From: a phage
Length of the DNA stretch: 50,731 bases
Strand: one strand, 5' to 3'
Sequence record: PZ445412.1
The stretch's first letter is position 1. Each line of letters begins with the position of its first letter. The notes under the pieces are model-generated. The model had not been told where the DNA came from. It made no database searches and was given only the letters and a program-made list of their open reading frames with translations. The position numbers and the translations under genes are program-made. Of the stretch, positions 1 to 26,389 are shown piece after piece.

Positions 1-1572
1 ATGTTGATTTGGGAAGATTTAACAAAACTTGAAAAGCTGGCTATTAAGGAATTAAGCACACACGATTTTGATACTTTCGTTAAAATCTGGTTCCCGATCC
101 AGCAGGGCGAAAAATGGATTCCTAACTGGCATCACCTTTATATTGCAAGGGCAATTGATGAAATTATTGAAGGTGTGCGCAAAGATACCATTTTTAACGT
201 AACGCCAGGTTCAGGCAAAACCGAATTGCTTTCGATCCACTTTCCGCCTTATTCATATTTGAAATTGAACAAGGTGCGAAATCTTAATATTTCGTTTGCT
301 GATACGCTGGTTAAACGTAACAGCAAGCGTGTGCGCGATCTGGTTAACTCGCGAGAATGGCAAGAGCTTTACCCCGCAAAAACTGGTACAAGCAAGGATG
401 ATGAATTTCAGATCCTTAATGACGCTGGCAAAGTTCGCCTGGAAATGATTAGTAAATCAATGGGCGGTCAGATTACTGGTAGCCGTGGCGGTTACATCAC
501 GCCTGGCGTTTATTCCGGTTGCGTAACGCTTGACGATCCAGAAAAGCCAGATGATATGTTTTCGAAGGTGAAGCGTGAGCGCGGTCAAATGATCGCAAAG
601 AACACCATTCGATCGCGTCGCGCACATTCAGAAACGCCGATTATCGTTATTCAGCAGCGTCTACACGCGCAGGATATGACATGGTTTCTGATGAATGGCG
701 GAATGGGTATTGAATTTGATCAGATATCAATTCCGGCGATGGTTACAGAGGAATACGGGAAATCGCTTCCTGATTGGTTGCAACCGCACTTTGAAAAGGA
801 TGTGCTTTCGTCTGAATACATCGTTATTGACGGCGTGAAGTATTATTCTTTTTGGCCTAGCAAGGAAAGCATTCATGACCTGAAAGCGCTACGCGATGCT
901 GATTTGTACACGTTCCTTTCTCAGTATCAGCAAGAGCCAATTGCTCTTGGCGGTAACGCAATTAACGTTGGATGGTTCCAGTATTACGGAACTGGAGAAA
1001 AATCAACGATGCCAAAACCGGATCGCTTTGATTATACGTTTATTACAGCAGATACCGCTCAGAAAGAAGGTGAGCTAAACGACTACAGCGTTTTATGTTA
1101 TTGGGGCATGTTCAAAGGCCGTATATATTTTATTGACGGTGTGCGCGGAAAATGGGAAGCGCCAATGTTAGAAACGCAGTTTAAAGCGTTTGTTAAACAG
1201 TGCTGGAACCGTAACAAAGAATGCGGAAACTTGCGTAAAATTTACGTGGAAGATAAAGCGAGCGGTACAGGTTTGATCCAGAATTGCCGCAAAGCATTTC
1301 CGATAGAAATTACGCCAGTGCAACGCGATAAAGACAAAGTAACGCGCTGCATGGACGCACAGCCAGTGATCAAGAATGGTTATGTTGTATTGCCTGAATC
1401 GCATCACATGCTTGCTGAATTTCTGGCAGAGGCTGCGGCATTCACTTATGATGATAGCCATCCTCATGATGATATTATGGATAACCTTTTTGATGCTGTT
1501 AATATTGAGCTTAACCTTGCTGATAATGCGGTTGATAGAATGAAGCGTTTAGCTGGATTAGCGAAGCGTTAA
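1..1572 (+). CDS. terL: terminase large subunit
   Basis: 523-aa ORF starting at base 1, RBS AGGTGA at window end; Walker-A-like TPGSGKTE; followed by portal; directly downstream of terS across the window junction. Confidence 0.8.
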   Translation: MLIWEDLTKLEKLAIKELSTHDFDTFVKIWFPIQQGEKWIPNWHHLYIARAIDEIIEGVRKDTIFNVTPGSGKTELLSIHFPPYSYLKLNKVRNLNISFADTLVKRNSKRVRDLVNSREWQELYPAKTGTSKDDEFQILNDAGKVRLEMISKSMGGQITGSRGGYITPGVYSGCVTLDDPEKPDDMFSKVKRERGQMIAKNTIRSRRAHSETPIIVIQQRLHAQDMTWFLMNGGMGIEFDQISIPAMVTEEYGKSLPDWLQPHFEKDVLSSEYIVIDGVKYYSFWPSKESIHDLKALRDADLYTFLSQYQQEPIALGGNAINVGWFQYYGTGEKSTMPKPDRFDYTFITADTAQKEGELNDYSVLCYWGMFKGRIYFIDGVRGKWEAPMLETQFKAFVKQCWNRNKECGNLRKIYVEDKASGTGLIQNCRKAFPIEITPVQRDKDKVTRCMDAQPVIKNGYVVLPESHHMLAEFLAEAAAFTYDDSHPHDDIMDNLFDAVNIELNLADNAVDRMKRLAGLAKR

Positions 1573-1585
1573 TGTGTAAAATCAA

Positions 1586-1612
1586 AGGCTGGAATATTCC
1601 GGCCTTTTTTAT
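1586..1612 (+). terminator. hairpin plus T-tract between terL and portal (attenuator/terminator)
   Basis: GGCTGG-AATATT-CCGGCC stem followed by TTTTTTATT. Confidence 0.4.
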
Positions 1613-1625
1613 TATGGGGGTATTT

Positions 1626-2921
1626 ATGAGCGACAAGGTAAAGGCCATTACTAAAGAAGATGGTTACAACGAAATTTTCGGATCTAAAGATGGAACGTTT
1701 AGGCCAAATGCTTTTTACATGCAAAGTGCGGCATTTAAAACGTTATCGCAATTTTATGAAGAAGATGGAATGGCGCGGCGCATTGTCGATGTTATTCCCG
1801 AAGAAATGGTAACACCTGGTTTTAAAGTTGACGGCGTGAAAAATGAAAAGGCTTTTAAATCGCGTTGGGATGAATTGCGATTAAACGCTAAAATTATTGA
1901 TGCACTTTCATGGTCGCGGTTATTTGGCGGTTCTGCAATTCTTGCTGTTGTTGCTGATAACAGAATGCTGAAATCACCTGTAAAGCCTGGCGCACAACTT
2001 GAAGATATTCGCGTATATGATCGCTATCAGATCACCATTCAGGAGCGTGAAACTAATGCGCGGAGTGTTCGTTACGGTGAGCCAAAACTTTATAAGATCT
2101 CACCTGGCGGAGATATACCGGAATTCTTTGTTCATTACTCGCGTATTTGCATCATTGATGGTGAGCGCGTATCGAATGAAAAACGCCGTCAAAATGATGG
2201 TTGGGGCGCAAGCATTTTAAACAAGCGTTTGATTGAGGCGATTGTTGATTATAACTATTGCCAGGAATTAGCAACGCAATTGCTACGCCGAAAACAACAA
2301 GCAGTATGGAAAGCGCGTGATCTGGCTTTGATGTGCGACGATGAAGAAGGTCGCTATGCGGCGCGTTTGCGTTTGGCTCAGGTTGATGACGAAAGCGGAG
2401 TTGGTAAGGCAATTGGTATTGATGCCACAGATGAAGAATATGAGGTTCTCAATTCTGACGTTTCCGGCGTTCCAGAGTTCTTACAGGAAAAGATTGATCG
2501 AATTGTTGCCCTAACTGGCATTCATGAAATCATCCTCAAAAATAAGAACACTGGCGGCGTTTCAGCGAGTCAAAACACGGCGCTAGAGACTTTCTATAAG
2601 TTGATTGATCGCAAGCGCGGAGAGGATTACAAGCCGATTCTTGAATTCCTTTTGCCTTTCATGATCGCAGAAACGGAATGGTCTATTGAATTCGAACCGT
2701 TAAGCGTTCCGAGCGATAAGGACAAAGCTGAAATTATGGCTAAGAACGTTGAATCTGTTGTAAAATTGAAAGCTGAACAGGCGATTGATCTCAAAGAAAC
2801 AAGAGACACTTTGCGATCCATTTGTCCAGATCTTAAAATCAGTGACAATGACAACATTGAATTGCCAGAGCCGGAAGATTTAGATCCAGAGCCAGGGCAA
2901 GAGGGAGGATTGAATAAATGA
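1626..2921 (+). CDS. portal protein
   Basis: Large ORF immediately after terL; likely start MSDKVKAI at 1626 after GGGGG RBS (six-frame ORF starts 1572); acidic C-terminus; position typical of portal. Confidence 0.7.
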   Translation: MSDKVKAITKEDGYNEIFGSKDGTFRPNAFYMQSAAFKTLSQFYEEDGMARRIVDVIPEEMVTPGFKVDGVKNEKAFKSRWDELRLNAKIIDALSWSRLFGGSAILAVVADNRMLKSPVKPGAQLEDIRVYDRYQITIQERETNARSVRYGEPKLYKISPGGDIPEFFVHYSRICIIDGERVSNEKRRQNDGWGASILNKRLIEAIVDYNYCQELATQLLRRKQQAVWKARDLALMCDDEEGRYAARLRLAQVDDESGVGKAIGIDATDEEYEVLNSDVSGVPEFLQEKIDRIVALTGIHEIILKNKNTGGVSASQNTALETFYKLIDRKRGEDYKPILEFLLPFMIAETEWSIEFEPLSVPSDKDKAEIMAKNVESVVKLKAEQAIDLKETRDTLRSICPDLKISDNDNIELPEPEDLDPEPGQEGGLNK

Positions 2922-3589
2922 TGTTTCCCGATATGACAGAGAGCGACGTTGAAAAGGCGCTTAATGATCTTGCGGTTGATATCACTGAAAACAATGCTGA
3001 TGTAGAGGCGGCAATTGCCGCCTTTATGTTGCTGGTTTACGGGTTCGCCGTTAGTGCATACAAATACCACACTCGCCAATTTATCAGAATGGCAAAGCAA
3101 ACAGGAGGCGCAAATAATCGATCCGTTATCCTTCTGATTGGTGGCGTTTACGGAAATATGAATGAACGCTGGTTCAATTCAAAATACATAACCTGGCGAT
3201 CACTTATTGAGGCATCCGTAAGGAAATTTGCGTATAATGTGCTTGATGATTGGGAAGTACAACAGCGTTTAAATGAGTTACGCGAGCAAGCAGAAACAAG
3301 AGCACAGATCCGAAAGCGCCTAAGAAAATATAAGGCGTGGGCTAAAAATAGGGCGTCTGGTTTTGTTGGTTCATGGTATTCCGTGTTAATGTTTCAACGC
3401 GTAGTTGATGCCGGAGTTACCCATTATATTTGGCGCACTCAGGAAGATAACAGGGTTAGACCTGAACACGCGAAATTGGACATGAAGCGGATCTCATTAG
3501 CTATAAAGCACATATTCCCAGGGCAGGAATATAATTGTCGCTGTTGGGCGCAACCGGATTGGAAAACAGAGCAAGAGGTATATTTATGA
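2918..3589 (+). CDS. head morphogenesis / minor capsid protein (SPP1 gp7 / Mu F-like)
   Basis: 223-aa ORF overlapping portal stop (ATGA); position and size typical of F-like head morphogenesis protein. Confidence 0.5.
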   Translation: MMFPDMTESDVEKALNDLAVDITENNADVEAAIAAFMLLVYGFAVSAYKYHTRQFIRMAKQTGGANNRSVILLIGGVYGNMNERWFNSKYITWRSLIEASVRKFAYNVLDDWEVQQRLNELREQAETRAQIRKRLRKYKAWAKNRASGFVGSWYSVLMFQRVVDAGVTHYIWRTQEDNRVRPEHAKLDMKRISLAIKHIFPGQEYNCRCWAQPDWKTEQEVYL

Positions 3590-4695
3590 AGAAGGTGCAA
3601 CGTTTTGATAGTGTCAGAGTAAAGGCTCATTTTGATGAACATGGGTTCTTAGTGGATCGGCCTATTGTGGCGCGAATTGGTTTGCAGATTTATCAAACGC
3701 CATACGGCGAGCGCCGAGAATTCAGGCCAGCAAGTGAAGTATTTAAAGCTGATAGCCTGGCGACTTACGCAGGGAAACCAATCACAGTAGGTCACGTCAC
3801 TGTAACTCCTGAAAACGCCGAGAAGGTTGTTGTTGGATCGTGTTCCGGCGCTGGCATTCCAAATGGTGTGGGCGTTGAAGCGCCGTTAAACATTTACGCA
3901 AAACGAGCAATCGAAAGCGCAAAGAAAAAACAAACGGCTGAAATTAGCGTTGGTTATACGTCGATTGATATTGATAAGCCTGGTTATGGATCTAATGAAA
4001 CTGGTGAATACATCTTTGAAGAAGATCTAAAAGAAGATGAACAGCCACCGGAAGGATGGGTAAAATTTGATGCGCTGCAAACAAGCATTAGCGTTAACCA
4101 TATTGCGTTAGTGTTTAAGGGTCGCGCTGGCATTGCAAAATTGAATCTTGATAGCGAGCAAGAATTCCCGTATGATATCGACGTTAAATTAAATAAAGAG
4201 GACGAAGTTATGACCGTTAAAATTAAACTTGATGGTGCTGTTGAATTTGACGTACCAAAAGAAGTTGCTACTTTTATCGAAACCGTGAAAGCAGACGCTA
4301 CAGCGGCAAAAACTAAAGCCGATAGCCTGGAAGCAGAGCGCGATGCGCTACAGGCGAAAGTTGACGGCATTCCGGCGCAGATTGAAGAAGCCGTGAAAAA
4401 GGCAAAAGCTGACGCTGATGAACATGCTGCACTGGTCGCTACCGCTTCCGAAGTTGGCGTAAAATGCGACGGCTTAACAGCAAAAGAAATTAAAATCGCA
4501 TATGTGAAAGAGGTCATGGGTAATGACATTAGCGCAAAGGCTGATGCATATATTGATACCGCTTTTGATATCGCGAAAGAATCTGATAAAATGGCGGCTC
4601 AACGTATCGCATTAAAAGGCGATGCAGCAAAAAACAAACAGGATGCAGCGGAAACCGTTCTTGATCCTTCCGCGCGTCTGAATAAAGCTAAGTAA
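3586..4695 (+). CDS. prohead protease / scaffolding protein (fusion-like)
   Basis: Start MKKVQRF at 3586 overlapping upstream stop; Ala/Lys/Glu-rich coiled-coil C-terminal half typical of scaffold; lies between portal and capsid genes. Confidence 0.45.
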   Translation: MKKVQRFDSVRVKAHFDEHGFLVDRPIVARIGLQIYQTPYGERREFRPASEVFKADSLATYAGKPITVGHVTVTPENAEKVVVGSCSGAGIPNGVGVEAPLNIYAKRAIESAKKKQTAEISVGYTSIDIDKPGYGSNETGEYIFEEDLKEDEQPPEGWVKFDALQTSISVNHIALVFKGRAGIAKLNLDSEQEFPYDIDVKLNKEDEVMTVKIKLDGAVEFDVPKEVATFIETVKADATAAKTKADSLEAERDALQAKVDGIPAQIEEAVKKAKADADEHAALVATASEVGVKCDGLTAKEIKIAYVKEVMGNDISAKADAYIDTAFDIAKESDKMAAQRIALKGDAAKNKQDAAETVLDPSARLNKAK

Positions 4696-10128: not shown

Positions 10129-13038
10129 ATGGCTGAACAATTTGCAGGTTTAACACTTGGCGTTAACGTCGAGCAGTTAAACAGGGCTGTAAAGTCATTG
10201 CAGGACTTTAAAAAAGCAAACGACGAAGCAAAGAAAGGCGTTGAGAGCTTTGTTAATGAGGAAGAAATTGCAAAGCAAAGAGCAAAGCAATTAGCTGATG
10301 AATTGGCGAAACAGAGCCGTGAATTTAAACGCATTCAGGACACTGTTGATCCGACAGCGGCGAAAATGCGCAAGCTATCTCAGGCCGCAAGTGATCTTGA
10401 TAAGCTATGGCAAAAGGGCATTGTTCCCGATGAAACGTTTTTCCAGTTGGGGAGTATGCTGGAAACTCAGATCAGTAAGCTGGAGCGTAATAAAAAGGCG
10501 TTAACGGAAGAAGGCCGCGCAGCACTTGAGGAATCAAAAGCCAAAGAGAAAGCAGCGTTAGCCGGAAAAACTTTCCTTGCGGATCTGGAATCGCAAGCCG
10601 CCGCTCTTGGCAAAACAAAAGCCGAATTGCTGGAAATGAAAGCGGCGCAACTTGGCGTAAGTGCTCAGGCAGCGCCATTTATCGCACAGCTTAAAGCGCA
10701 AGAAAAACAGATGAAGTTAACCGGAATTAGCGCTGGGCAATACAAGCAAGCTATGGCGCAACTTCCGGCTCAGATCACTGACGTTGTAACGTCGCTGGCT
10801 TCCGGTATGCCTGTTTGGTTGGTTGCAATCCAGCAGGGTGGACAGATTAAAGATTCTTTCGGCGGCGTTGGTAATACGTTTAAAGCGCTGTTGTCGTTTC
10901 TGAATCCGGTAAACGTTGGCCTTGCCGCATTAGCCGTTTCAATGGGTGCTCTTGTTAAGGCTGGTTATGATGCGTATAAATCGCAACGTGACTTGCAAGA
11001 GGCGTTGGTGCTGACTGGTGGATATGCTGGCACAAGCGGCGCACAGTTCGATAAGCTGGCGCAGGACATTAATAACAGCACTGATGCGACGATAGGAAAC
11101 ATCCGATCTATCGCAACAGAGCTTGCAAAATCCGGCAAGTTCACGATTGATCAGATTAAAGCAATCACGAAGACTACCGCTCAGTGGTCAACTGTAACGG
11201 GTGAATCAAGCGACAAGATAACCGATTACTTTAATAAGATTGCTGGCGATCCGGTTAAAGGTCTTGCAGAGCTAAACGAGCAATTCAACTTTTTAAGCGA
11301 AGGGCAGTTAACTTATATTGCAGACCTGGAGAAAACGAAAGGCAAAACGGAAGCAGTAACGGCGGCGACAAAGTTATTTGCTGATGTTATGGATCAGAGA
11401 TTAGCTAAACTGGCAGACTCCGCAACGCCATTAGAAAAGATGTGGACGAACATTAAAAAATGGGCGTCAGATGCATGGGGTTGGGTTGGGGATCATACGC
11501 TGGCGGCGCTTAACCTGATTATTGACGTTGTAGCCGGAACCGTTGAGCAGGTTCGTTACTTGCTTAATCAGGGTGATATTCTCATTGGTGAGTTTATCGT
11601 GTCTGCAACAAAGGCTATGCAAAAAATACCTGGTCTTGATGGAGTTGGTGATTCAGTAATTGCACAGCAGCAACAGATCATTAATAAATCAAAAGAGCAA
11701 AACAAAGAGCTATTAAAATCAATTGCCGAACGTAACGAGCGAGTCAAAAAAGGCGAGCAGGGTTACATTGACATGATGAAAAATCGTGCGGCGGTTGAAC
11801 AGCAATATGCTACTAAAACAAAGGAGAATATCAGGAAGGAAGCCGAGGAATTAGCCAAGCGCGATAAAAAACAAAAGGCTGAAAAAGTTAAAGTATCGGC
11901 TGGCGATAAGCTGGAAGAACAATATCAGCGTGATATCCTGGCTTTAGAAACTCAATTAAGAGTTTTGAAAGAGCATAAGACGATCACTGATACCATAAGC
12001 CAGCAACGTAAATCTTTATGGGCTGAACAGGCTAAAATTCAGATTCTGCAAGAAGCCTCAACAAAGCGGCAACTTACTGATGAAGAAAAAAGCATTTTAG
12101 CCAACAAAGATAAGATCCTGGCGATGGCTGAACAAAAAGCCATTTTAGGCGATCAGATTGTTGCACAAACGCGCCTTAATCAGTTGCAAGATAGCTCAAT
12201 CAAGTTTATCCAGCAGCAGAAAGCAGCAACAGAAGCACTAGCCAAAACCAGAGGGTTAAGCGAGCGTGAAGCAGCAAGAGCGGCGGAACGTGCAAAGGTT
12301 GAATCTGATTATCTTGCTAAGGGAGGACAGAAAGAAGATCCGCAACTTAAAGCCATGATGGATGCCTTAGACAACCGCTATAAAGAGGAAGATGCTAAAC
12401 GTGCTGATTGGTTGGCTGGAGCTAAAAATGCCTTTGCGGAGTACGGCGAGGAAGCAATGAACATGTATGATAATATCGGCAACATTGCGAGCCAGGCGCT
12501 AAACGGCCTATCGCAACAAATGGCTGATTTTTTGACTACTGGACAAGCCAACTTCAAAGACTTTGCAAAATCAATCATTAGCCTGATTGTTCAGATGATC
12601 ACAAAAATGGTTATCTTCAATAGCATTTCCGGCATGATGGGCGGCTCAACCTGGACGCTTGGAAGCCTTTTAAGCGGTGCTGGTTTTGCTGGCGGCGGTT
12701 ATACTGGCGACGGTGGCAAATATGATCCGGCTGGAGTTGTTCATAAAGGTGAGTTTGTTTTTACCAAAGAGGCAACGCAAAGGATCGGAGCCAAAAACCT
12801 ATATCGCATGATGCGAGGTTATGCAAACGGCGGTCAAGTAGGAAGCGTGACAACTGGCGGCGCTGGCATCAATCGCGGTGCATCGCAATTTGCGTTTGGT
12901 GATATCAACGTTAACATTGACAACGGTCAAGATCCAAAAGGGATGGAAACTGGTATCAAGATGATTTTCACTGAAATGATTCAACGGTCATGCTCGCAAG
13001 GTGGCGAGGTTTATAATTTTGTTCATGGGAGGGCTTAA
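10129..13038 (+). CDS. tail tape measure protein
   Basis: About 970 aa, long coiled-coil regions, Gly-rich C-terminus; start MAEQF at 10129. Confidence 0.85.
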   Translation: MAEQFAGLTLGVNVEQLNRAVKSLQDFKKANDEAKKGVESFVNEEEIAKQRAKQLADELAKQSREFKRIQDTVDPTAAKMRKLSQAASDLDKLWQKGIVPDETFFQLGSMLETQISKLERNKKALTEEGRAALEESKAKEKAALAGKTFLADLESQAAALGKTKAELLEMKAAQLGVSAQAAPFIAQLKAQEKQMKLTGISAGQYKQAMAQLPAQITDVVTSLASGMPVWLVAIQQGGQIKDSFGGVGNTFKALLSFLNPVNVGLAALAVSMGALVKAGYDAYKSQRDLQEALVLTGGYAGTSGAQFDKLAQDINNSTDATIGNIRSIATELAKSGKFTIDQIKAITKTTAQWSTVTGESSDKITDYFNKIAGDPVKGLAELNEQFNFLSEGQLTYIADLEKTKGKTEAVTAATKLFADVMDQRLAKLADSATPLEKMWTNIKKWASDAWGWVGDHTLAALNLIIDVVAGTVEQVRYLLNQGDILIGEFIVSATKAMQKIPGLDGVGDSVIAQQQQIINKSKEQNKELLKSIAERNERVKKGEQGYIDMMKNRAAVEQQYATKTKENIRKEAEELAKRDKKQKAEKVKVSAGDKLEEQYQRDILALETQLRVLKEHKTITDTISQQRKSLWAEQAKIQILQEASTKRQLTDEEKSILANKDKILAMAEQKAILGDQIVAQTRLNQLQDSSIKFIQQQKAATEALAKTRGLSEREAARAAERAKVESDYLAKGGQKEDPQLKAMMDALDNRYKEEDAKRADWLAGAKNAFAEYGEEAMNMYDNIGNIASQALNGLSQQMADFLTTGQANFKDFAKSIISLIVQMITKMVIFNSISGMMGGSTWTLGSLLSGAGFAGGGYTGDGGKYDPAGVVHKGEFVFTKEATQRIGAKNLYRMMRGYANGGQVGSVTTGGAGINRGASQFAFGDINVNIDNGQDPKGMETGIKMIFTEMIQRSCSQGGEVYNFVHGRA

Positions 13039-13385
13039 TGTTAGATGAATTTACCTGGTGTACGCAGATTCAGAGCGGCGGCGGTGTAATGACAACTATC
13101 AATAACGACAGGGAGGTTGTTTTTGGTAACGGTTATCGCCAAAAGGCATCTTCTGGATTTAACACGGAGCGGAGGGAGTTTTCTATTGTTTACGCTGGCA
13201 CTGATTATAAAAAAGTGAAAGCGTTCATGACGGATCACAGATTAAAGCCTTTCTTGTGGAGGATGCCGGATGGTGATTTAGGATTGTTCACGGTTAAAGC
13301 CGGAACGGTAGGACTAACGCCAATAAGCCCAACCGCTCAGGAAGTCAAAGCAACATTCACGGAAGAATTTACATCCATGCGATAA
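13038..13385 (+). CDS. minor tail protein (lambda M-like)
   Basis: 115-aa ORF overlapping tape-measure stop; position. Confidence 0.55.
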   Translation: MLDEFTWCTQIQSGGGVMTTINNDREVVFGNGYRQKASSGFNTERREFSIVYAGTDYKKVKAFMTDHRLKPFLWRMPDGDLGLFTVKAGTVGLTPISPTAQEVKATFTEEFTSMR

Positions 13386-13389
13386 ATCA

Positions 13390-13413
13390 AAGCCGCCATT
13401 GTGCGGCTTTTTT
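13390..13413 (+). terminator. rho-independent terminator
   Basis: GCCGC-cattgt-GCGGC followed by TTTTTTAT. Confidence 0.6.
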
Positions 13414-13457
13414 ATTGTGTCTATAATGGTGCTTTATTGTGTCTATAATGGTGCTTT
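13414..13457 (+). repeat. perfect 22-bp tandem duplication containing TATAAT (tandem promoter candidate)
   Basis: ATTGTGTCTATAATGGTGCTTT repeated twice, directly upstream of RBS GGAGGG of the L-like gene. Confidence 0.7.
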
Positions 13458-13474
13458 ATTGGAGGGCATAGAAT

Positions 13475-14233
13475 ATGGCTGAAAAACAGATCAAAAAGAC
13501 TTTTGAAAATTGTCTGCAATCGCTTTTCCCTGGTGAAATAATTACGCTTGTTGAGGTTGACGGCACAAAATTTGGTGCGCAGGTTTACCGCTTTCATGCT
13601 GAAAATATCGCGTACACTCCAGAGGAATTAATGCAAGCGCGTGAAACTGGAATATTGCCGCCGAAAGATATTAAATTTCGTGGCGAGGTTTACGGGGCGC
13701 GGCCTTTTGGGATTACTGGCATTGGCTTTACAAGTAACGGAAAGGCAGAGAAACCACAATTAGCGCTTTCAAATTTAGATAGCCGCGTATCTGCATTAAT
13801 CAGATCATATAATGGCATGATGCAAGCCAAAGTAACAATTTGGGTTACATCGGCTGATTTAATTGATGAAGAAGGAAACGTGGAGGATGGCGCATATAGA
13901 AAGTTGGTTTATTATATTGAGCGTCCGAATTTTGTTAATCAGACAGTTGCACGTTTTGAATTAACATCACCTTATGATATGGATGGAATTATGATCCCGC
14001 CACGACTCACGCAAAGCGTTTGTTATTGGGCGCAAAGGGGATGGTATAGAAGCGGGAAAGGTTGTGGATATAACGGATCGGCAATGTTCGATAAAGACAA
14101 TAATCCGGTAACAGATCCGAGCAAGGATTATTGCGCCGGAACAGTGACAGCCTGTAAATTGCGCTTTGGCGCTCAAAATGAATTAGATTTCGGCGGTTGC
14201 GCGGTTGCATCACTATTGAGGAAAAACCAATGA
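13475..14233 (+). CDS. minor tail protein (lambda L-like)
   Basis: 252-aa ORF; Cys cluster near C-terminus; position. Confidence 0.6.
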   Translation: MAEKQIKKTFENCLQSLFPGEIITLVEVDGTKFGAQVYRFHAENIAYTPEELMQARETGILPPKDIKFRGEVYGARPFGITGIGFTSNGKAEKPQLALSNLDSRVSALIRSYNGMMQAKVTIWVTSADLIDEEGNVEDGAYRKLVYYIERPNFVNQTVARFELTSPYDMDGIMIPPRLTQSVCYWAQRGWYRSGKGCGYNGSAMFDKDNNPVTDPSKDYCAGTVTACKLRFGAQNELDFGGCAVASLLRKNQ

Positions 14234-22490: not shown

Positions 22491-22732
22491 CTTTCTTTGA
22501 TACCCAAAACAGCAATTACCTTAACTGCGATCCGGCTTGCAAGTTCAAGCTGTTGTGCGTTAAGCGTTCCTGTATTCATGATAGACAACAGTCCAGACAT
22601 AGAGCCAAGAGCTTTAAAATCAGTAAAGGCTGATTTCATAATATCCATTTGTTGATGACCACCATTCACAATCGCTTGTGCGCGTTCTGATAGGTCTGCA
22701 ACTACCTTTTCAACACCATCACTTTTCGTCAT
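22475..22732 (-). CDS. hypothetical protein
   Basis: 85-aa ORF, last gene of the minus-strand block; convergent with ssb. Confidence 0.35.
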   Translation of the reverse strand: MTKSDGVEKVVADLSERAQAIVNGGHQQMDIMKSAFTDFKALGSMSGLLSIMNTGTLNAQQLELASRIAVKVIAVLGIKESEKGA

Positions 22733-23216
22733 TTTCTGCTACCTTTTCCGCCTGAGTTGCTTGTTGTGGCATGTTAGGCCACGGGCTAATCGCTTCACGT
22801 TCTGCAACAGGCTTTTCCGGTTCAATCCCTAAAAACTTGCCAACAAACTCACCAACGAAATTAGAGCTATCACTTATATAAACGTGCATCCGATCCAGAT
22901 CTGAGGACGTTACACTATTTGGCGCAATCATGATGCGCTGTTGATGAAAGCCGATATACATCACATTAACAGGGCGCTCAAGTGCCCCAGGGTTTGGGGC
23001 AATAACTCCCATGATCCAACAATAATGGATTTGACCATCGCCTAAAGGCTCACATCCAGCATTTAGCCAGTTCACTTTCTGATGTGGGAACATCATAGAC
23101 GAATCTGTTGCGTCACGCCGTAGCGACCAATTAACGCCACCAATTTCAATATTTGGACGTGGGCGCATACCGTTAAACTGAGTCACACCAGCACCATTCT
23201 GATTCATGTTTTGCAT
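22719..23216 (-). CDS. hypothetical protein
   Basis: 165-aa ORF, co-oriented, overlapping the downstream ORF. Confidence 0.4.
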   Translation of the reverse strand: MQNMNQNGAGVTQFNGMRPRPNIEIGGVNWSLRRDATDSSMMFPHQKVNWLNAGCEPLGDGQIHYCWIMGVIAPNPGALERPVNVMYIGFHQQRIMIAPNSVTSSDLDRMHVYISDSSNFVGEFVGKFLGIEPEKPVAEREAISPWPNMPQQATQAEKVAENDEK

Positions 23217-23230
23217 ATCGGCTTACCTTC

Positions 23231-23578
23231 TTACATTGATTTCATTTTACGCAGAGCGCAAATACACGCGGCGGCAAGATCTGTTAATTCTTTCTCAATG
23301 CCGTGATGCGAGCCATCTGATTTTTCAGTCATTAACTCTTTGTATTCCATTTCAACAATTGACATCATGCCGCCTGGCTTGTCGTGGTACGCTTCCCAAG
23401 TATGCGGAGGGTTTGAAATGCGTTCATGAACATCTGCCATAGCTGAACCATGTTCATGAGTTCGATAATGATAACCATCATGATCTTTTTCCTCATGCGA
23501 GCCAATAACAATGCGCGGTAAATGAATGCGTGGCATTCGATAGCCAGCGATCTTAATATGTGACATAAAAGCCTCCAT
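23231..23578 (-). CDS. hypothetical His-rich protein
   Basis: 115-aa ORF with many His residues (HEEKDHDGYHYRTHEHG...). Confidence 0.4.
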   Translation of the reverse strand: MEAFMSHIKIAGYRMPRIHLPRIVIGSHEEKDHDGYHYRTHEHGSAMADVHERISNPPHTWEAYHDKPGGMMSIVEMEYKELMTEKSDGSHHGIEKELTDLAAACICALRKMKSM

Positions 23579-23609
23579 AGAGAAAAGCGCCCCGAAAGGC
23601 GCTTATTTA

Positions 23610-24320
23610 TTAGCAGCCACAGCAGCCAGTAGGCGGCGTTGGCGGGGTAGGCAGTTTGAAGTTAACCAACTGCTCAACCTGGTTAATTTTGCAATTCAGC
23701 GCGGCGGTTTGATTCGCCTGAGACAGTGCAAAACGAGCCTCTTGCAGTTGCGATTTCATATCGCAAATGAGAACAGCCTGAGAATCAGCGAACTGTTGAC
23801 GCATCAGATCACGCGTTGCGTTGCCCTGGCGTTCAATATTCAGGTTTGTCTCGCAGCAACATCTTTCGGCGGCAAGTTGCGCCTCAAAACTAGCTCGCTG
23901 TTGCTCAAACGACTGAGCACAAATAGCACCAGTAATTGTGTTAGTGCTTTGAGTGATCGCAGTGTTAAGACCTGCAAAGCCCTGGACGGATGCCAAAAGG
24001 TTCTGCGTGTTCTGATTGGTAATGCCGTTAAAAGTTGAAGCGGCGGAGCGTTCAACAGTTAAGTTTGTCGCGTTCTGTCCTTGCAGGGTTTGCAGTCCCA
24101 AGTTGTTGACACCAGTCTGAATGTTATTGATACCATCAAGAACGGCGTTTGCACCAACAGCAACAGCAGCACCATCGCCACCACCATTAAAGCCACGACC
24201 ACCAAAGCCATTGCCGAACCATGAACCAATCAGGCCGCCGACAGCGCCGCCAAGACCAGCCGCACCAGCTTCACCGCCACCAAAACCGCCACCCGTAGGT
24301 AATAGAGTCATATCTGACAT
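23610..24320 (-). CDS. Gly-rich protein with Cys-rich C-terminus (possible fibre-associated protein)
   Basis: N-terminal Gly-rich low complexity, central Gln/Asn-rich region, CCCE motif and C-terminal PTPPTPPTGCCGC; directly downstream of tail fibre gene. Confidence 0.45.
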   Translation of the reverse strand: MSDMTLLPTGGGFGGGEAGAAGLGGAVGGLIGSWFGNGFGGRGFNGGGDGAAVAVGANAVLDGINNIQTGVNNLGLQTLQGQNATNLTVERSAASTFNGITNQNTQNLLASVQGFAGLNTAITQSTNTITGAICAQSFEQQRASFEAQLAAERCCCETNLNIERQGNATRDLMRQQFADSQAVLICDMKSQLQEARFALSQANQTAALNCKINQVEQLVNFKLPTPPTPPTGCCGC

Positions 24321-24469: not shown

Positions 24470-26389
24470 TTATGGTAGTTCTGGAATTGTTGTGGCATTA
24501 CCTCCAGCCAATCCAGCAATCATTTCCTTCAATTGTTCAATATCAGCTTTTAAACTTGAAACTTCACTTTCTAACGCTTCATTTTTACCCTGCAACTCTT
24601 GAACAACAACAATAAGATCAGAAATAACGGCGCGATCATTAACGTTCATGATTTCGAATTCATCACCGTTTTCATCTGTTGCAGTTCCGCCAAAGAAAAC
24701 GTAAGTGTCGTCTATTTCAGCCATTTGTTGCGCAAGGTATCCACGCTGCAAAACATGGTTTCCCTTATAATAAAACTCCATAACACCAATCTGTTTAACG
24801 CGATCCCATGCGCCAGGCTTAGGAGGTTCAAATCTATCCTTAATACGAACATCAGATCCCTGAATAGCGCAGCGCCCCTCAGGTGTATAGAATCCATTAT
24901 CGTTTCGCATCGAGTACCATACGACACTACCGCCAAATGTGTTAAAAGACCAAACATATTGATACTGTTGCCCAGGGACACCTGCAACATAGTTTTGAAC
25001 ACCAAACCACGAGTTTTCAACATATGTAAGAAGGTTTGCGCCATCGCTTGATTGTTGAGATTTTTCTTTAATCAAAGCAGCAGTCCACGGGCCTCCCTGA
25101 CCATAATAAGCCTTAGCCCACACCGCATTAAATGTAACATCCTGATCAATTCCAACCCCTAAATTTCGTCTTGCTTGAGCTACATTATCAGCACCAGTAC
25201 CACCTTGCGCAATACCTAGAGCCGACCAACCTTTTAGATAGCGATTGAACATACCCCATGTTCCATCATTCCTTACAGATATCTCTTTTAAACCATCTGG
25301 AGAAAGCATTGACGTGAAAACAGAATCCTGAATTATTCTATCAACTTGCAAATTTATTTTTGCTTGCGTAACGTTTTCAGCACCAGTGCCGCCAGCGCCA
25401 ATAGAAAGTGCCGATGTGCTGTTGTTGTCATTACGTGCAACTCGCCATTCTCCATTGTTAGCGATCCGCAATTCATAAGTCCATGCAGGATTTCTGAAAG
25501 AGTTGTAAGCGCCAGTATCTTGATCTTTTACAGAATTAACCGCCTCAACTTTCAAAGCTTCCCTTGCAAGGTCTTTGTTTGCAAGATCATTAAGGTTTTG
25601 ATCCTTATGCAGCAGATTTTCAGGTTGCACCTGTTGCGCCCATTGGCGAGCTTCATCACGCGCAGTCTCAGCGCCAGCCTTTGCATTATCAGCACCAACC
25701 TTTGATTGCTCTGCGGCGAATTGTGCGTTTTCCGCTTCATCACGCGCGTCTAACGCTTCATTTTTAATTCCGGTTATCTCAGTAACGGCAGAATCTTTAA
25801 TCTGTTGCGTTTGGTTTTTTATTGCGTCCGTGTCTGCCTTAATCTGATTGGTTTCGGCAACAGCGGCATTCTTAATCTGTTGAGTTTCAGAAACAGCGGT
25901 ATCCTTAATCTGTTGCGTTTCAGTAACAGCAGCATCCTTTATTGTTTGCGTGTAGTTTTTTAATTGTTCCGTCGCGGCTCGGTCTGCATCAGTTTTTTGC
26001 GCGGAAGCCTCAGCGCGAGCAACAAGATCCTGTATTGTTTTTAAATCAAAGTTTTTGAAAAATTCAATCGCTTCCTCAATAACAGTTTCTTTACTTTGGT
26101 AATAGCGCAGCGTTTCCGCAACATCTTGCGCCATTCCATCTACCGTTAAAGAGTCATTCAACAGGATCACATAATTTCCGTTTTCTACTGGCTCGCCGTC
26201 AGTCTGGATCGCTTTCATTTCCGTGTCACTTACAATATCGCTAATCACAGCCAATTTAAGAGGCGATGTGAGAAATACGATTGTTGCGCCAGCGCGGATA
26301 AGAGAAAGAGGCTCACGCCATTTTGTGCCAGTACCAGTAATAACGCCTTGCGCGTCCATTGCAGCCGTACCAGTGCGATATAAAGCCAT
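24470..26389 (-). CDS. side tail fibre with C-terminal chaperone-like domain
   Basis: 639 aa; about 11-aa tandem repeats (TQQIKDTAVSE-like); C-terminal coiled-coil tail; own sigma70-like promoter and terminator. Confidence 0.7.
   Translation of the reverse strand: MALYRTGTAAMDAQGVITGTGTKWREPLSLIRAGATIVFLTSPLKLAVISDIVSDTEMKAIQTDGEPVENGNYVILLNDSLTVDGMAQDVAETLRYYQSKETVIEEAIEFFKNFDLKTIQDLVARAEASAQKTDADRAATEQLKNYTQTIKDAAVTETQQIKDTAVSETQQIKNAAVAETNQIKADTDAIKNQTQQIKDSAVTEITGIKNEALDARDEAENAQFAAEQSKVGADNAKAGAETARDEARQWAQQVQPENLLHKDQNLNDLANKDLAREALKVEAVNSVKDQDTGAYNSFRNPAWTYELRIANNGEWRVARNDNNSTSALSIGAGGTGAENVTQAKINLQVDRIIQDSVFTSMLSPDGLKEISVRNDGTWGMFNRYLKGWSALGIAQGGTGADNVAQARRNLGVGIDQDVTFNAVWAKAYYGQGGPWTAALIKEKSQQSSDGANLLTYVENSWFGVQNYVAGVPGQQYQYVWSFNTFGGSVVWYSMRNDNGFYTPEGRCAIQGSDVRIKDRFEPPKPGAWDRVKQIGVMEFYYKGNHVLQRGYLAQQMAEIDDTYVFFGGTATDENGDEFEIMNVNDRAVISDLIVVVQELQGKNEALESEVSSLKADIEQLKEMIAGLAGGNATTIPELP

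Follow-up and report, generated by a model that had tools for sequence, protein, structure and literature searches.

Hendecad repeats of varying number and a predicted chaperone domain in the lateral tail fibre gene of Escherichia phage DanielBernoulli

The fibre gene and its repeat array

The window, by which we mean the whole stretch of 50,731 nucleotides that was analysed, matched phage DanielBernoulli (MZ501059.1) with 100% DNA identity. DanielBernoulli, or Bas08, is a T1-like coliphage (Escherichia phage; Drexlerviridae, Tlsvirus), and 176 phage records matched by DNA. The gene under study had been called a side tail fibre gene in the initial annotation, a name borne out by its annotation as a lateral tail fiber protein in DanielBernoulli and by its matches to PHROG tail-fibre families (best phrog_5481, E 3e-194; the others span aa 1 to ~250). 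The gene lies between the primase/helicase and the ssb/recombination genes, a position common to the annotations of DanielBernoulli, Tls, KMM3, MBBL140 and LL5, and in DanielBernoulli its neighbours include a recombination protein gene and an exonuclease VIII-like gene. Phage, gene and chaperone domain were all known beforehand, and no new system is described here. The main parts of the gene are as follows.

24470..26389, minus strand: lateral tail fibre gene, bas08_0031, 639 aa (ORF listing; annotation in MZ501059.1)
26045..26389, minus strand: conserved virion-anchor region, aa 1-115, near-invariant among relatives
25631..26044, minus strand: predicted continuous alpha-helix, aa 116-253, the proximal stalk (AlphaFold2 model, hydrophobic periodicity)
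25763..25969, minus strand: repeat array, aa 141-209 (three canonical 11-residue and two 7-residue units, with a degenerate unit at either end)
24857..25492, minus strand: distal beta-rich part, aa 300-511, presumed receptor-binding (secondary structure of the model)
24473..24856, minus strand: Peptidase_S74 / intramolecular chaperone auto-cleavage (ICA) domain, aa 512-639, 14.2 kDa

The full-length AlphaFold2 model is a monomer with a pTM of 0.29; it was used for secondary structure and domain-level matches, and its overall shape was ignored. In the anchor region it places a beta domain (aa 1-76) followed by a helix (aa 83-112). Residues 1-169 are homologous to the N-terminus of the Klebsiella phage depolymerases 7vyv and 7lzj (E 6e-49), and the counterpart in Depo32 has been named the 'N-terminal anchor domain' (PMC10581125). 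Foldseek also aligned the N-terminal beta domain with the N-terminal barrels of F1-ATPase (E 0.06-0.3).

The array is composed of the following units, all read in the frame of 24470-26389.

Leading end of the array, minus strand: degenerate unit EQLKNYTQTIK
25838..25936, minus strand: canonical 33-nt units DAAVTETQQIK, DTAVSETQQIK and NAAVAETNQIK, the block whose unit number varies
25796-25837, minus strand: 7-residue units ADTDAIK and NQTQQIK, which follow the canonical units
25763-25795, minus strand: degenerate trailing unit DSAVTEITGIK

The canonical units share the consensus [D/N]xAVxETxQIK. The gene had been credited with four to five imperfect ~33-bp repeats at 25730-25960; this is a fair description of three canonical and two degenerate units, it agrees with Tandem Repeats Finder and the autocorrelation, and the interval spans nearly the whole array. 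Tandem Repeats Finder reported a period of 33 nt at 25837-25951 (3.5 copies, 83% matches), with a score of 142, its highest in the window. The canonical units have 26-29 of 33 nt in common (79-88% identity between neighbours), and exact matches at lag 33 extend over at most 12 nt. The lag-33 autocorrelation gave 73 matches of 99, the best in the 50.7-kb window over lags 9 to 60, with a runner-up of 54; 2000 codon shuffles of the gene gave a mean of 40.1 matches (sd 2.5, maximum 52). When synonymous codons were redrawn from the gene's own usage with the protein fixed, 47.2 ± 2.4 of 66 matches were expected and 55 were observed (p ~0.0009), so the repeats resemble one another at the nucleotide level beyond what the peptide repeat alone would give. 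A plus-strand ORF at 25805-25963 (52 aa) was rejected as a gene, being merely the antisense reading of the repeats.

The predicted stalk helix is 138 residues long, ~20 nm if straight, and is modelled with a pLDDT of ~86-90 for aa 141-200. The hydrophobic period across the array is 3.62-3.64 residues, close to the hendecad (11-residue) ideal of 11/3 = 3.67, and it falls to 3.48-3.50 residues in the 7-residue-period segment that follows (aa 210-253). Over 88 units, columns A3, V4, E6, I10 and K11 are near-invariant and fit a packing pattern; T7 is also conserved. The array thus combines an 11-residue sequence repeat with a period near 3.67 inside a continuous predicted helix, the marks of a hendecad coiled coil, and each unit is calculated to add ~1.6 nm. 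We presume that the stalk is a trimer because S74-containing fibres are trimeric and an AlphaFold trimer has been published for a related fibre.

The region might instead be a binding motif in several copies, or be disordered or beta-structured, and its counterpart is indeed invisible in the cryo-EM map of Depo32. We find this reading barely credible, as the Depo32 counterpart is described as a helical bundle (PMC10581125), the helix here is predicted at a pLDDT of ~90 with a hydrophobic period of 3.63 residues, and the five columns are near-invariant over the units compared.

Unit number among related phages

The number of canonical units ranges from 0 to 4 among the relatives compared.

4 units: KKP 3830
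3 units: DanielBernoulli, Tls, KMM3, MBBL140, LL5, YSP2
2 units: 011D2, Henu4_2, Sazh, Stevie, Punny
1 unit: Brooksby, FSL SP-126
0 units: L013, L015, P0004, P0090

In a broad blastn of the stalk region the alignments started at query positions 108, 142/145 and 175, in steps of one unit; exact numbers are not readable in that table, which did not enter the counts. Most of the proteins found with a query of aa 1-283 were short or truncated (<=500 aa), and full-length homologues were collected with aa 254-639. Stalks of 88, 99, 110 and 121 residues occur in database proteins, and that of KKP 3830 has 132, one unit more. The DNA alignment of the relatives (A3) has in-register gaps of exactly 33 or 66 nt, and all of the observed indels are in frame. 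The proposal that the repeats expand and contract and so change fibre length is supported by these differences, which extend to near-identical alleles. No description of a unit-number series in Drexlerviridae fibres was found in the papers searched, and a literature search on hendecad repeats in phage fibres found nothing relevant.

The clearest single case is KKP 3830. Its stalk is near-identical to that of YSP2 on either side of a single exact 33-nt insertion, and the extra unit is a chimera of the 5' half of YSP2 unit 2 and the 3' half of unit 1. As judged from its sequence, this gained unit is the mark of misaligned pairing.

Other repeats, motifs and junctions of the gene are as follows.

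25734..25747, minus strand: first copy of a 14-nt direct repeat, GCGCGTGATGAAGC, encoding ARDEA
25650..25663, minus strand: second copy of GCGCGTGATGAAGC
25586..25663, minus strand: conserved end of the stalk, ARDEARQWAQQVQPENLLHKDQNLND, with a mosaic junction directly after it in some relatives
25379-25393 and 25190-25204, minus strand: two 'GGTGAxN...NL' motifs in the distal part

In the 7-residue-period segment after the array, relatives carry deletions of 14 and 28 residues. The deletion of 28 residues (84 nt) falls between the two GCGCGTGATGAAGC copies and is found in Tls, Henu4_2 and Brooksby (alignment A3). Farther on, homology to LL5, MBBL140 and L016 ends directly after HKDQNLND, and homology to some relatives ends directly after the first GGTGAEN motif. 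In the distal part of the Tls fibre there is a third 63-aa module, with its junction exactly at the GGTGA motif.

With a gene so clearly mosaic, the differences in unit number could have been spread by recombination among alleles that already differed, the repeats marking old duplications. The breaks after HKDQNLND and the first GGTGAEN motif are in keeping with this, and so is the identical 84-nt deletion in phages with 3, 2 and 1 units (Tls, Henu4_2 and Brooksby, respectively), combinations that recombination could assemble. We nevertheless think it quite unlikely that allele shuffling explains the series. Alleles at least 95.5% identical across the upstream 420 nt have 2, 3 or 4 units, and the chimeric insertion in KKP 3830, with its near-identical flanks, is a local event.

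The opposite extreme would be a fast-switching contingency locus, at which slippage varies fibre length at high frequency within a population. Tandem in-frame repeats in a host-interaction gene, with a natural range of unit numbers, might suggest as much, but several observations make it highly improbable. The units are merely 79-88% identical with exact matches of at most 12 nt, and changes that are always in frame give no on/off switching. Between phages, orthologous units resemble one another far more closely than do adjacent units of a single phage; this, together with the short exact run, indicates that indel events are infrequent. Orthologous units are also stable over phages that differ upstream by up to ~25%. 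In a 10-day evolution experiment with U136B, a relative with 3 units, no repeat indels were reported in the orthologous gene (PMC10304864). Given this result, the imperfect identity of the units and the in-frame indels, the array was not classed as a simple-sequence contingency (phase-variation) locus, in which long runs of identical units would be gained or lost so as to switch expression at high frequency.

The C-terminal domain

The features of the C-terminal domain are as follows.

24854-24856 and 24839-24841, minus strand: codons of Ser512 and Lys517, with G511|S512 as the predicted scissile bond
24506..24637, minus strand: aa 585-628, the helix that ends the chaperone domain; its period is 7-residue-like and it has weak bZIP/GCN4-like matches

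Pfam assigned aa 512-561 to PF13884 with a score only just over the cut-off (24.6 bits versus 22; E 3.2e-5), and PF13884 is precomputed in many homologues. In the sequence S512-D-V-R-I-K517 both S512 and K517 are invariant in alignment A1, and the motif S-D-x-R-x-K occurs in 44 homologues, its Ser lying 100-135 residues before the C-terminus. In the model, strands and helices occupy 527-583, and a helix follows at 585-628. The best Foldseek match, covering query aa 512-628, was the MyRF ICA domain 7dc3 (E 4.8e-5, TM 0.62-0.67, rmsd 2.6 A, ~120 columns). Among PDB sequences, the C-terminus of a tail fibre (8jov) was matched with an E of 7.6e-5; apart from this the PDB sequence searches gave only GCN4-like coiled coils, with no match to T5 pb1 or to the K1F endosialidase. 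What ties the domain to the chaperone family is thus the Pfam score, the motif and the fold match, and these support the assignment of the C-terminal 128 residues as a Peptidase_S74 intramolecular chaperone domain. A chaperone cleaved off the C-terminus had been proposed in the initial annotation, which placed it in a coiled-coil region; the domain assignment stands, but the chaperone comprises the entire alpha/beta domain of 128 residues, of which the coiled-coil helix is only the last third.

Cleavage at G511|S512 is predicted by analogy. In T5 pb1, Ser1264 and Lys1269 are needed for cleavage and the S1264A mutant stays uncleaved (PMC4690869); the spacing of Ser512 and Lys517 is the same. 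A literature search that combined S74 with Drexlerviridae gave no relevant result.

The S74-like domain may alternatively be kept in the mature fibre as a folding or trimerisation domain, as has been proposed for the C-terminal fin of the P22 tailspike. The Pfam score barely over its cut-off leaves room for this, and the paper on TLS speaks of a '78 kDa structural protein' where it describes Gp55 anew, a product taken here as the orthologue of the fibre. For the Tls orthologue a mass of 74.1 kDa uncleaved and 59.9 kDa cleaved is predicted, so the band is nearer the uncleaved mass and may argue against cleavage. The band was, however, described without sequencing identification, and the gel mobility of trimeric fibres is often anomalous. 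With an invariant Ser and a Lys five residues on, in the S-D-x-R-x-K context and corresponding to the cleavage residues of T5 pb1, we hold retention to be the less likely outcome by a good way, though a less unlikely one than the other alternatives considered here.

Proposed mechanism and comparison with known systems

We consider it probable that the 33-bp repeats are hendecad units of a presumably trimeric coiled-coil stalk, that the number of units is changed by mispairing, and that the fibre ends in an S74-type chaperone. Weighing against parts of this reading are the infrequency of indel events, the evolution experiment with U136B and the '78 kDa' band of TLS. The stalk would join the conserved virion-anchor domain to an exchangeable distal receptor-binding part. 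Neighbouring units, at their level of identity, may now and then misalign, through replication slippage or through annealing or recombination at short homologies, with whole units gained or lost; the phage's own recombination protein and exonuclease VIII-like gene are possible contributors to the short-homology route. Because such indels come in steps of 33 nt, each equal to one structural period, neither the reading frame nor the register of the coiled coil would be disturbed and the fibre would still fold, its stalk longer or shorter by ~1.6 nm per unit. The same logic may apply to the heptad segment with its deletions of 14 and 28 residues. The chaperone domain would nucleate folding of the trimer from the C-terminus and then cleave itself off at G511|S512, as in T5 pb1 and the K1F endosialidase, leaving a predicted mature fibre of 55.8 kDa.

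A further and rather doubtful suggestion is that the hendecad array and the heptad segment form an evolvable spacer, whose reach is tuned to the thickness of the host O-antigen or capsule, with unit number under host-dependent selection and unit gain or loss perhaps promoted by the phage's single-strand-annealing recombination genes.

Under the mispairing mechanism preferred here, a fibre can change its length without breakage, since the sizes of its indels match the local period (11 residues, or 14 or 28 where the period is 7). The comparison also maps natural cut points, namely the unit boundaries, the HKDQNLND block and the GGTGA motifs, which could serve in building chimeric Drexlerviridae fibres or length variants that probe reach in adsorption.

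Among known fibres, T5 pb1 is likewise a siphovirus lateral fibre with a chaperone of ~130 residues (~133 in pb1, 128 here) and a Ser with a Lys five residues on. The pb1 chaperone has a mixed alpha/beta part and a trimeric coiled-coil helix, the trimer being inferred here. It differs in length (1396 aa versus 639), in its shaft and 'bullet' tip, and in that its cleavage has been demonstrated, whereas that of the present fibre is only inferred; phmmer found no similarity to pb1, and we know of no hendecad array in it. HHpred has tied the Tls orthologue to 4UW8 (PMC11447400).

Other Drexlerviridae fibres (Tls Stf; gp28 of Cronobacter phages CRES7 and CRES9) share the N-terminal anchor and the genomic position, and for the Cronobacter fibre a coiled coil, a beta region and an ICA domain have been described and an AlphaFold trimer published (PMC12090712). 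Drexlerviridae alleles differ in the number of hendecad units (0-4), in the 14- and 28-aa heptad deletions, in how many 63-aa GGTGA modules they carry and in their distal domain. Depo32 of a Klebsiella Webervirus (7VYV, 7LZJ) is homologous over aa 1-169, its 'N-terminal anchor domain and helical-bundle domain' (PMC10581125). Unlike the fibre of DanielBernoulli, it has a distal beta-helix capsule depolymerase with a carbohydrate-binding module and no S74 domain, and its helical segment is Ala/Ser-rich and without the IK repeat. The chaperone of the K1F endosialidase and the ICA domain of MyRF (7DC3) belong to the same Pfam family, PF13884, and the fold match of aa 512-628 is to the latter; the domains upstream of them are triple beta-helices, and sequence identity is ~20%.

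In streptococcal M proteins and the stalks of trimeric autotransporter adhesins, in-frame length variants arise through misaligned intragenic repeats, and in T-even tail-fibre genes short conserved motifs act as recombination junctions. No role in immune evasion or host range is known for the present array, which differs from these systems also in its 11-residue coiled-coil period, its place in a siphovirus lateral fibre and its range of 0-4 units, ~6.5 nm. The array is a tidy example of a familiar mode of length change in fibrous proteins.

The lateral fibre gene and its repeat array

The fibre gene was matched by megablast at 100% over its full length to Escherichia phage DanielBernoulli (MZ501059.1), which is Bas08 of the BASEL collection (50,731 bp; Drexlerviridae, Tempevirinae, Tlsvirus), and the window is the MZ501059.1 genome with a 536-nt rotation. 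The side tail fibre called in the initial annotation was supported by this match to an annotated lateral tail fiber protein and by matches to PHROG tail-fibre families (best E 3e-194). The phage, the gene annotation and the Peptidase_S74 domain were previously on record. The gene is flanked by a DNA primase gene and by recombination/ssb genes, likewise in Tls, KMM3, MBBL140 and LL5. The BASEL paper treats such proteins as lateral fibres, suggests O-antigen contact, and finds conservation confined to the far N-terminus; in Bas08 the J-like tip protein, not the lateral fibre, binds the terminal receptor, TolC (PMC8594841). Between its fibre gene and ssb, DanielBernoulli carries extra genes not present in Tls, MBBL140 and LL5. 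The first encodes 236 aa with a Gly-rich N-terminus, ends in PTPPTPPTGCCGC and has no Pfam match; this protein and its two neighbours gave PHROG matches only to families of unknown function.

Genes in and next to the fibre locus
24470-26389, minus: lateral tail fiber protein gene bas08_0031 (639-aa ORF, MZ501059.1 annotation)
22719-24320, minus: extra genes
23610-24320, minus: 'putative sugar-binding protein', the first extra gene

Tandem Repeats Finder reported a 33-nt period at 25837-25951 (3.5 copies, 83% matches) with a score of 142, the maximum in the window. The initial annotation's "four to five imperfect repeats" and their consensus were borne out, as the array consists of three canonical, two degenerate flanking and two seven-residue units.

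Units of the repeat array (25763-25969, minus; aa 141-209 in the fibre gene frame)
1: EQLKNYTQTIK, degenerate, flanking
2: DAAVTETQQIK, canonical
3: DTAVSETQQIK, canonical
4: NAAVAETNQIK, canonical
5: ADTDAIK, seven residues
6: NQTQQIK, seven residues
7: DSAVTEITGIK, degenerate, flanking

The lag-33 autocorrelation (73/99 matches) was the best in the window for lags 9-60, the runner-up reaching 54, and was far higher than in 2000 codon shuffles of the fibre gene (mean 40.1, sd 2.5, maximum 52). When synonymous codons were redrawn with the protein fixed, 47.2 ± 2.4 of 66 matches were expected and 55 observed (p ~0.0009), and the repeat units therefore share descent at the DNA level. The canonical units agree at 26-29 of 33 nt, and no exact lag-33 run exceeds 12 nt.

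The window also holds an intergenic repeat. The 22-mer TTTATTGTGTCTATAATGGTGC, which contains TATAAT, is perfectly duplicated in tandem directly after a terminator-like hairpin, and does not occur again anywhere in the window. Intergenic repeats of T1-like phages are listed as an open question in the TLS paper.

Intergenic repeat region
13389-13461: hairpin and 22-mer region
13389-13410: terminator-like hairpin, between ORFs 13038-13385 and 13475-14233
13411-13454: tandem 22-mer

Unit number among related phages

Fibre loci (L numbers) were collected from GenBank phage records and IMG/VR, and proteins (P numbers) from two database searches. Canonical units were counted between 'EQLKNxTQxIK' and 'ADTDAIK'.

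Canonical units per fibre
4: KKP 3830
3: DanielBernoulli, Tls, KMM3, MBBL140, LL5, YSP2
2: 011D2, Henu4_2, Sazh, Stevie, Punny
1: Brooksby, FSL SP-126, several IMG/VR contigs
0: L013, L015, P0004, P0090

The earlier proposal that the array expands and contracts is thus supported: relatives carry 0-4 units, and in the DNA alignment of their stalk regions they are set apart by gaps of exactly 33 or 66 nt that keep the unit register. Stalk lengths in the database proteins, taken from EQLKN to HKDQNL, were 121 (n = 9), 110 (n = 7), 99 (n = 15) or 88 (n = 2) residues; odd lengths of 93, 81 and 74 residues were accounted for by other repeat-bounded deletions. Both recent and old unit-number changes have occurred: 2, 3 or 4 units were present in alleles sharing at least 95.5% identity with DanielBernoulli across the upstream 420 nt. 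The clearest case is KKP 3830 versus YSP2, with near-identical flanks in the aligned stalk region. The KKP 3830 stalk, at 132 residues, is one unit above the 121-residue alleles, and its extra unit matches YSP2 unit 2 in its 5' portion, GATGCCGCCGTTTCTGAAAC, and YSP2 unit 1 in its 3' portion, GCAACGGATTAAG. Because it is such a chimera, it bears the signature of out-of-register duplication.

Units may be gained or lost via replication slippage or via short-homology recombination; annealing-based events are plausible because a putative recombination protein and an exonuclease VIII-like protein are encoded near the fibre gene. Orthologous units were 0-2 nt apart between close phages and neighbouring units within one phage 4-7 nt apart. 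In a 10-day evolution of U136B (3 units), the orthologous gene 57 acquired point mutations and 3'-terminal insertions, with no repeat indels reported (PMC10304864). On this divergence pattern and the U136B result, the locus does not look hypermutable. The U136B changes included K688N, which arose in parallel, and frame-shifting +82 and +86 bp insertions at nt 2281 and 2263 of 2373, at frequencies of 64-77% (PMC10304864). They correspond to about 24470-24860 of the window, and would lie in or near the C-terminal chaperone domain if U136B has the same domain.

Some records were irregular. The fibre gene of Citrobacter phage KMM3 is annotated as three overlapping ORFs (1501-3592 of its locus), and the reading frame of Salmonella phage 36 ends after 115 aa; frameshifts or sequencing errors could explain this, or else the lateral fibre has truly been lost. 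A Tlsvirus/T1-like fibre gene is present in 'Streptococcus phage MBBL140' (OR786094.1), itself classified as Tlsvirus in its record, and in ~15 'Campylobacter phage' records (MG0656xx). These host labels look doubtful, and contamination with T1-like coliphage may be their source.

Stalk structure and indel sizes

An AlphaFold2 model of the fibre was built from a 55-sequence alignment (mean pLDDT 75). Because pTM was 0.29, only local features were used.

Local features of the AlphaFold2 model
aa 1-76: N-terminal beta domain
aa 83-112: helix
aa 116-253: single continuous helix (pLDDT ~86-90 over aa 141-200), followed by a low-confidence linker
aa 305-508: beta-rich modules
C-terminus: alpha/beta domain with a long terminal helix, aa 585-628

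The hydrophobic period of the array is 3.62-3.64 residues (hendecad ideal 11/3 = 3.67), and that of aa 210-253 is heptad-like, at 3.48-3.50. Positions A3, V4, E6, I10 and K11 were almost invariant in 88 units from homologues. Residues 1-169 are homologous to the Klebsiella phage depolymerases 7vyv and 7lzj (E 6e-49), in which the equivalent region is described as an N-terminal anchor domain and a helical-bundle domain, both invisible in the cryo-EM map (PMC10581125). We conclude that the 33-nt repeats encode 11-residue units of a predicted proximal coiled-coil stalk. We infer that the stalk is trimeric, by analogy with known S74-containing fibres and the published AlphaFold trimer of a related Drexlerviridae fibre (PMC12090712). 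The N-terminal beta domain (26162-26389) also gave many weak Foldseek hits to the N-terminal beta-barrel of F1/V1-ATPase alpha/beta subunits (probability 0.8-1.0, E 0.06-0.3).

Other indels affect the heptad part. In Tls, Henu4_2 and Brooksby, 84 nt (28 aa) are missing exactly between two copies of GCGCGTGATGAAGC (25734-25747 and 25650-25663), and Punny lacks 14 aa of the same segment. Indel lengths (11 residues where the period is hendecad, 14 or 28 where it is heptad) are whole structural periods, and so fit selection, or mere viability filtering, for a kept coiled-coil register. At ~0.15 nm per helical residue, one unit was calculated as ~1.6 nm, the span of 0-4 units as ~6.5 nm and the helix as ~20 nm.

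Distal modules and the C-terminal domain

The distal fibre is built of ~63-aa modules, each opening with 'GGTGAxN...A..NL'. DanielBernoulli has two (motifs at 25190-25204 and 25379-25393), and Tls and MBBL140 have three; the motif count in full-length homologues was 0-3. DanielBernoulli follows Tls module 2 through GGTGGTACTGGTGC and then Tls module 3, a clean 189-nt module difference. Two mosaic junctions were seen. The similarity of LL5, MBBL140 and locus L016 ends directly after HKDQNLND (25586-25609), and that of YSP2, Sazh, Stevie and loci L007, L011 and L021 after the first GGTGAEN motif (25370-25393); this second break accounts for the many megablast hits ending near query nt 1019-1050.

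The assignment of the C-terminus as a Peptidase_S74/intramolecular chaperone domain is supported by a Pfam match at aa 512-561 (24.6 bits, curated cut-off 22), the S512-D-V-R-I-K517 motif, an alignment of tail-fibre chain 8jov across aa 507-611, and the fold. The motif did not vary among close relatives, and S-D-x-R-x-K was common to 44 homologues, followed by 100-135 residues. The top PDB matches of the model were three chains of the MyRF ICA domain 7dc3 (E 4.8e-5 to 1.2e-4, TM 0.62-0.67, rmsd 2.6-2.7 Å), which the 7dc3 paper describes as homologous to the phage chaperone. The Tls orthologue is named Peptidase S74 domain-containing protein in UniRef. The initial annotation had taken a C-terminal coiled coil for the chaperone; the domain assignment held, but coiled-coil helix makes up its last third only.

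In T5 pb1, the chaperone domain (residues 1263-1396) has a trimeric coiled coil at the centre with a flanking alpha/beta part and is released after folding; the scissile residue is Ser1264, with Lys1269 five residues on, and the S1264A mutant is not cleaved (PMC4690869). If the DanielBernoulli fibre behaves likewise, cleavage at G511|S512 would leave a mature protein of 55.8 kDa and release a domain of 14.2 kDa. The TLS paper, in re-describing Gp55, taken to be the fibre orthologue, mentions 'a 78 kDa structural protein'. This is closer to the predicted uncleaved mass of the orthologue (74.1 kDa) than to the cleaved one (59.9 kDa) and, with the band assumed to be the fibre, argues weakly against cleavage.

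A layout of this general kind, with coiled coil, beta region and ICA domain, was reported earlier for a related Drexlerviridae fibre (PMC12090712). Neither the hendecad unit-number series nor the correspondence of indel size with structural period was found in the searchable literature. The stalk repeat series is practically useful for fibre engineering and offers an easy way to ask whether the reach of the fibre matters. Fibrous surface proteins are well known to vary in length via intragenic repeats.
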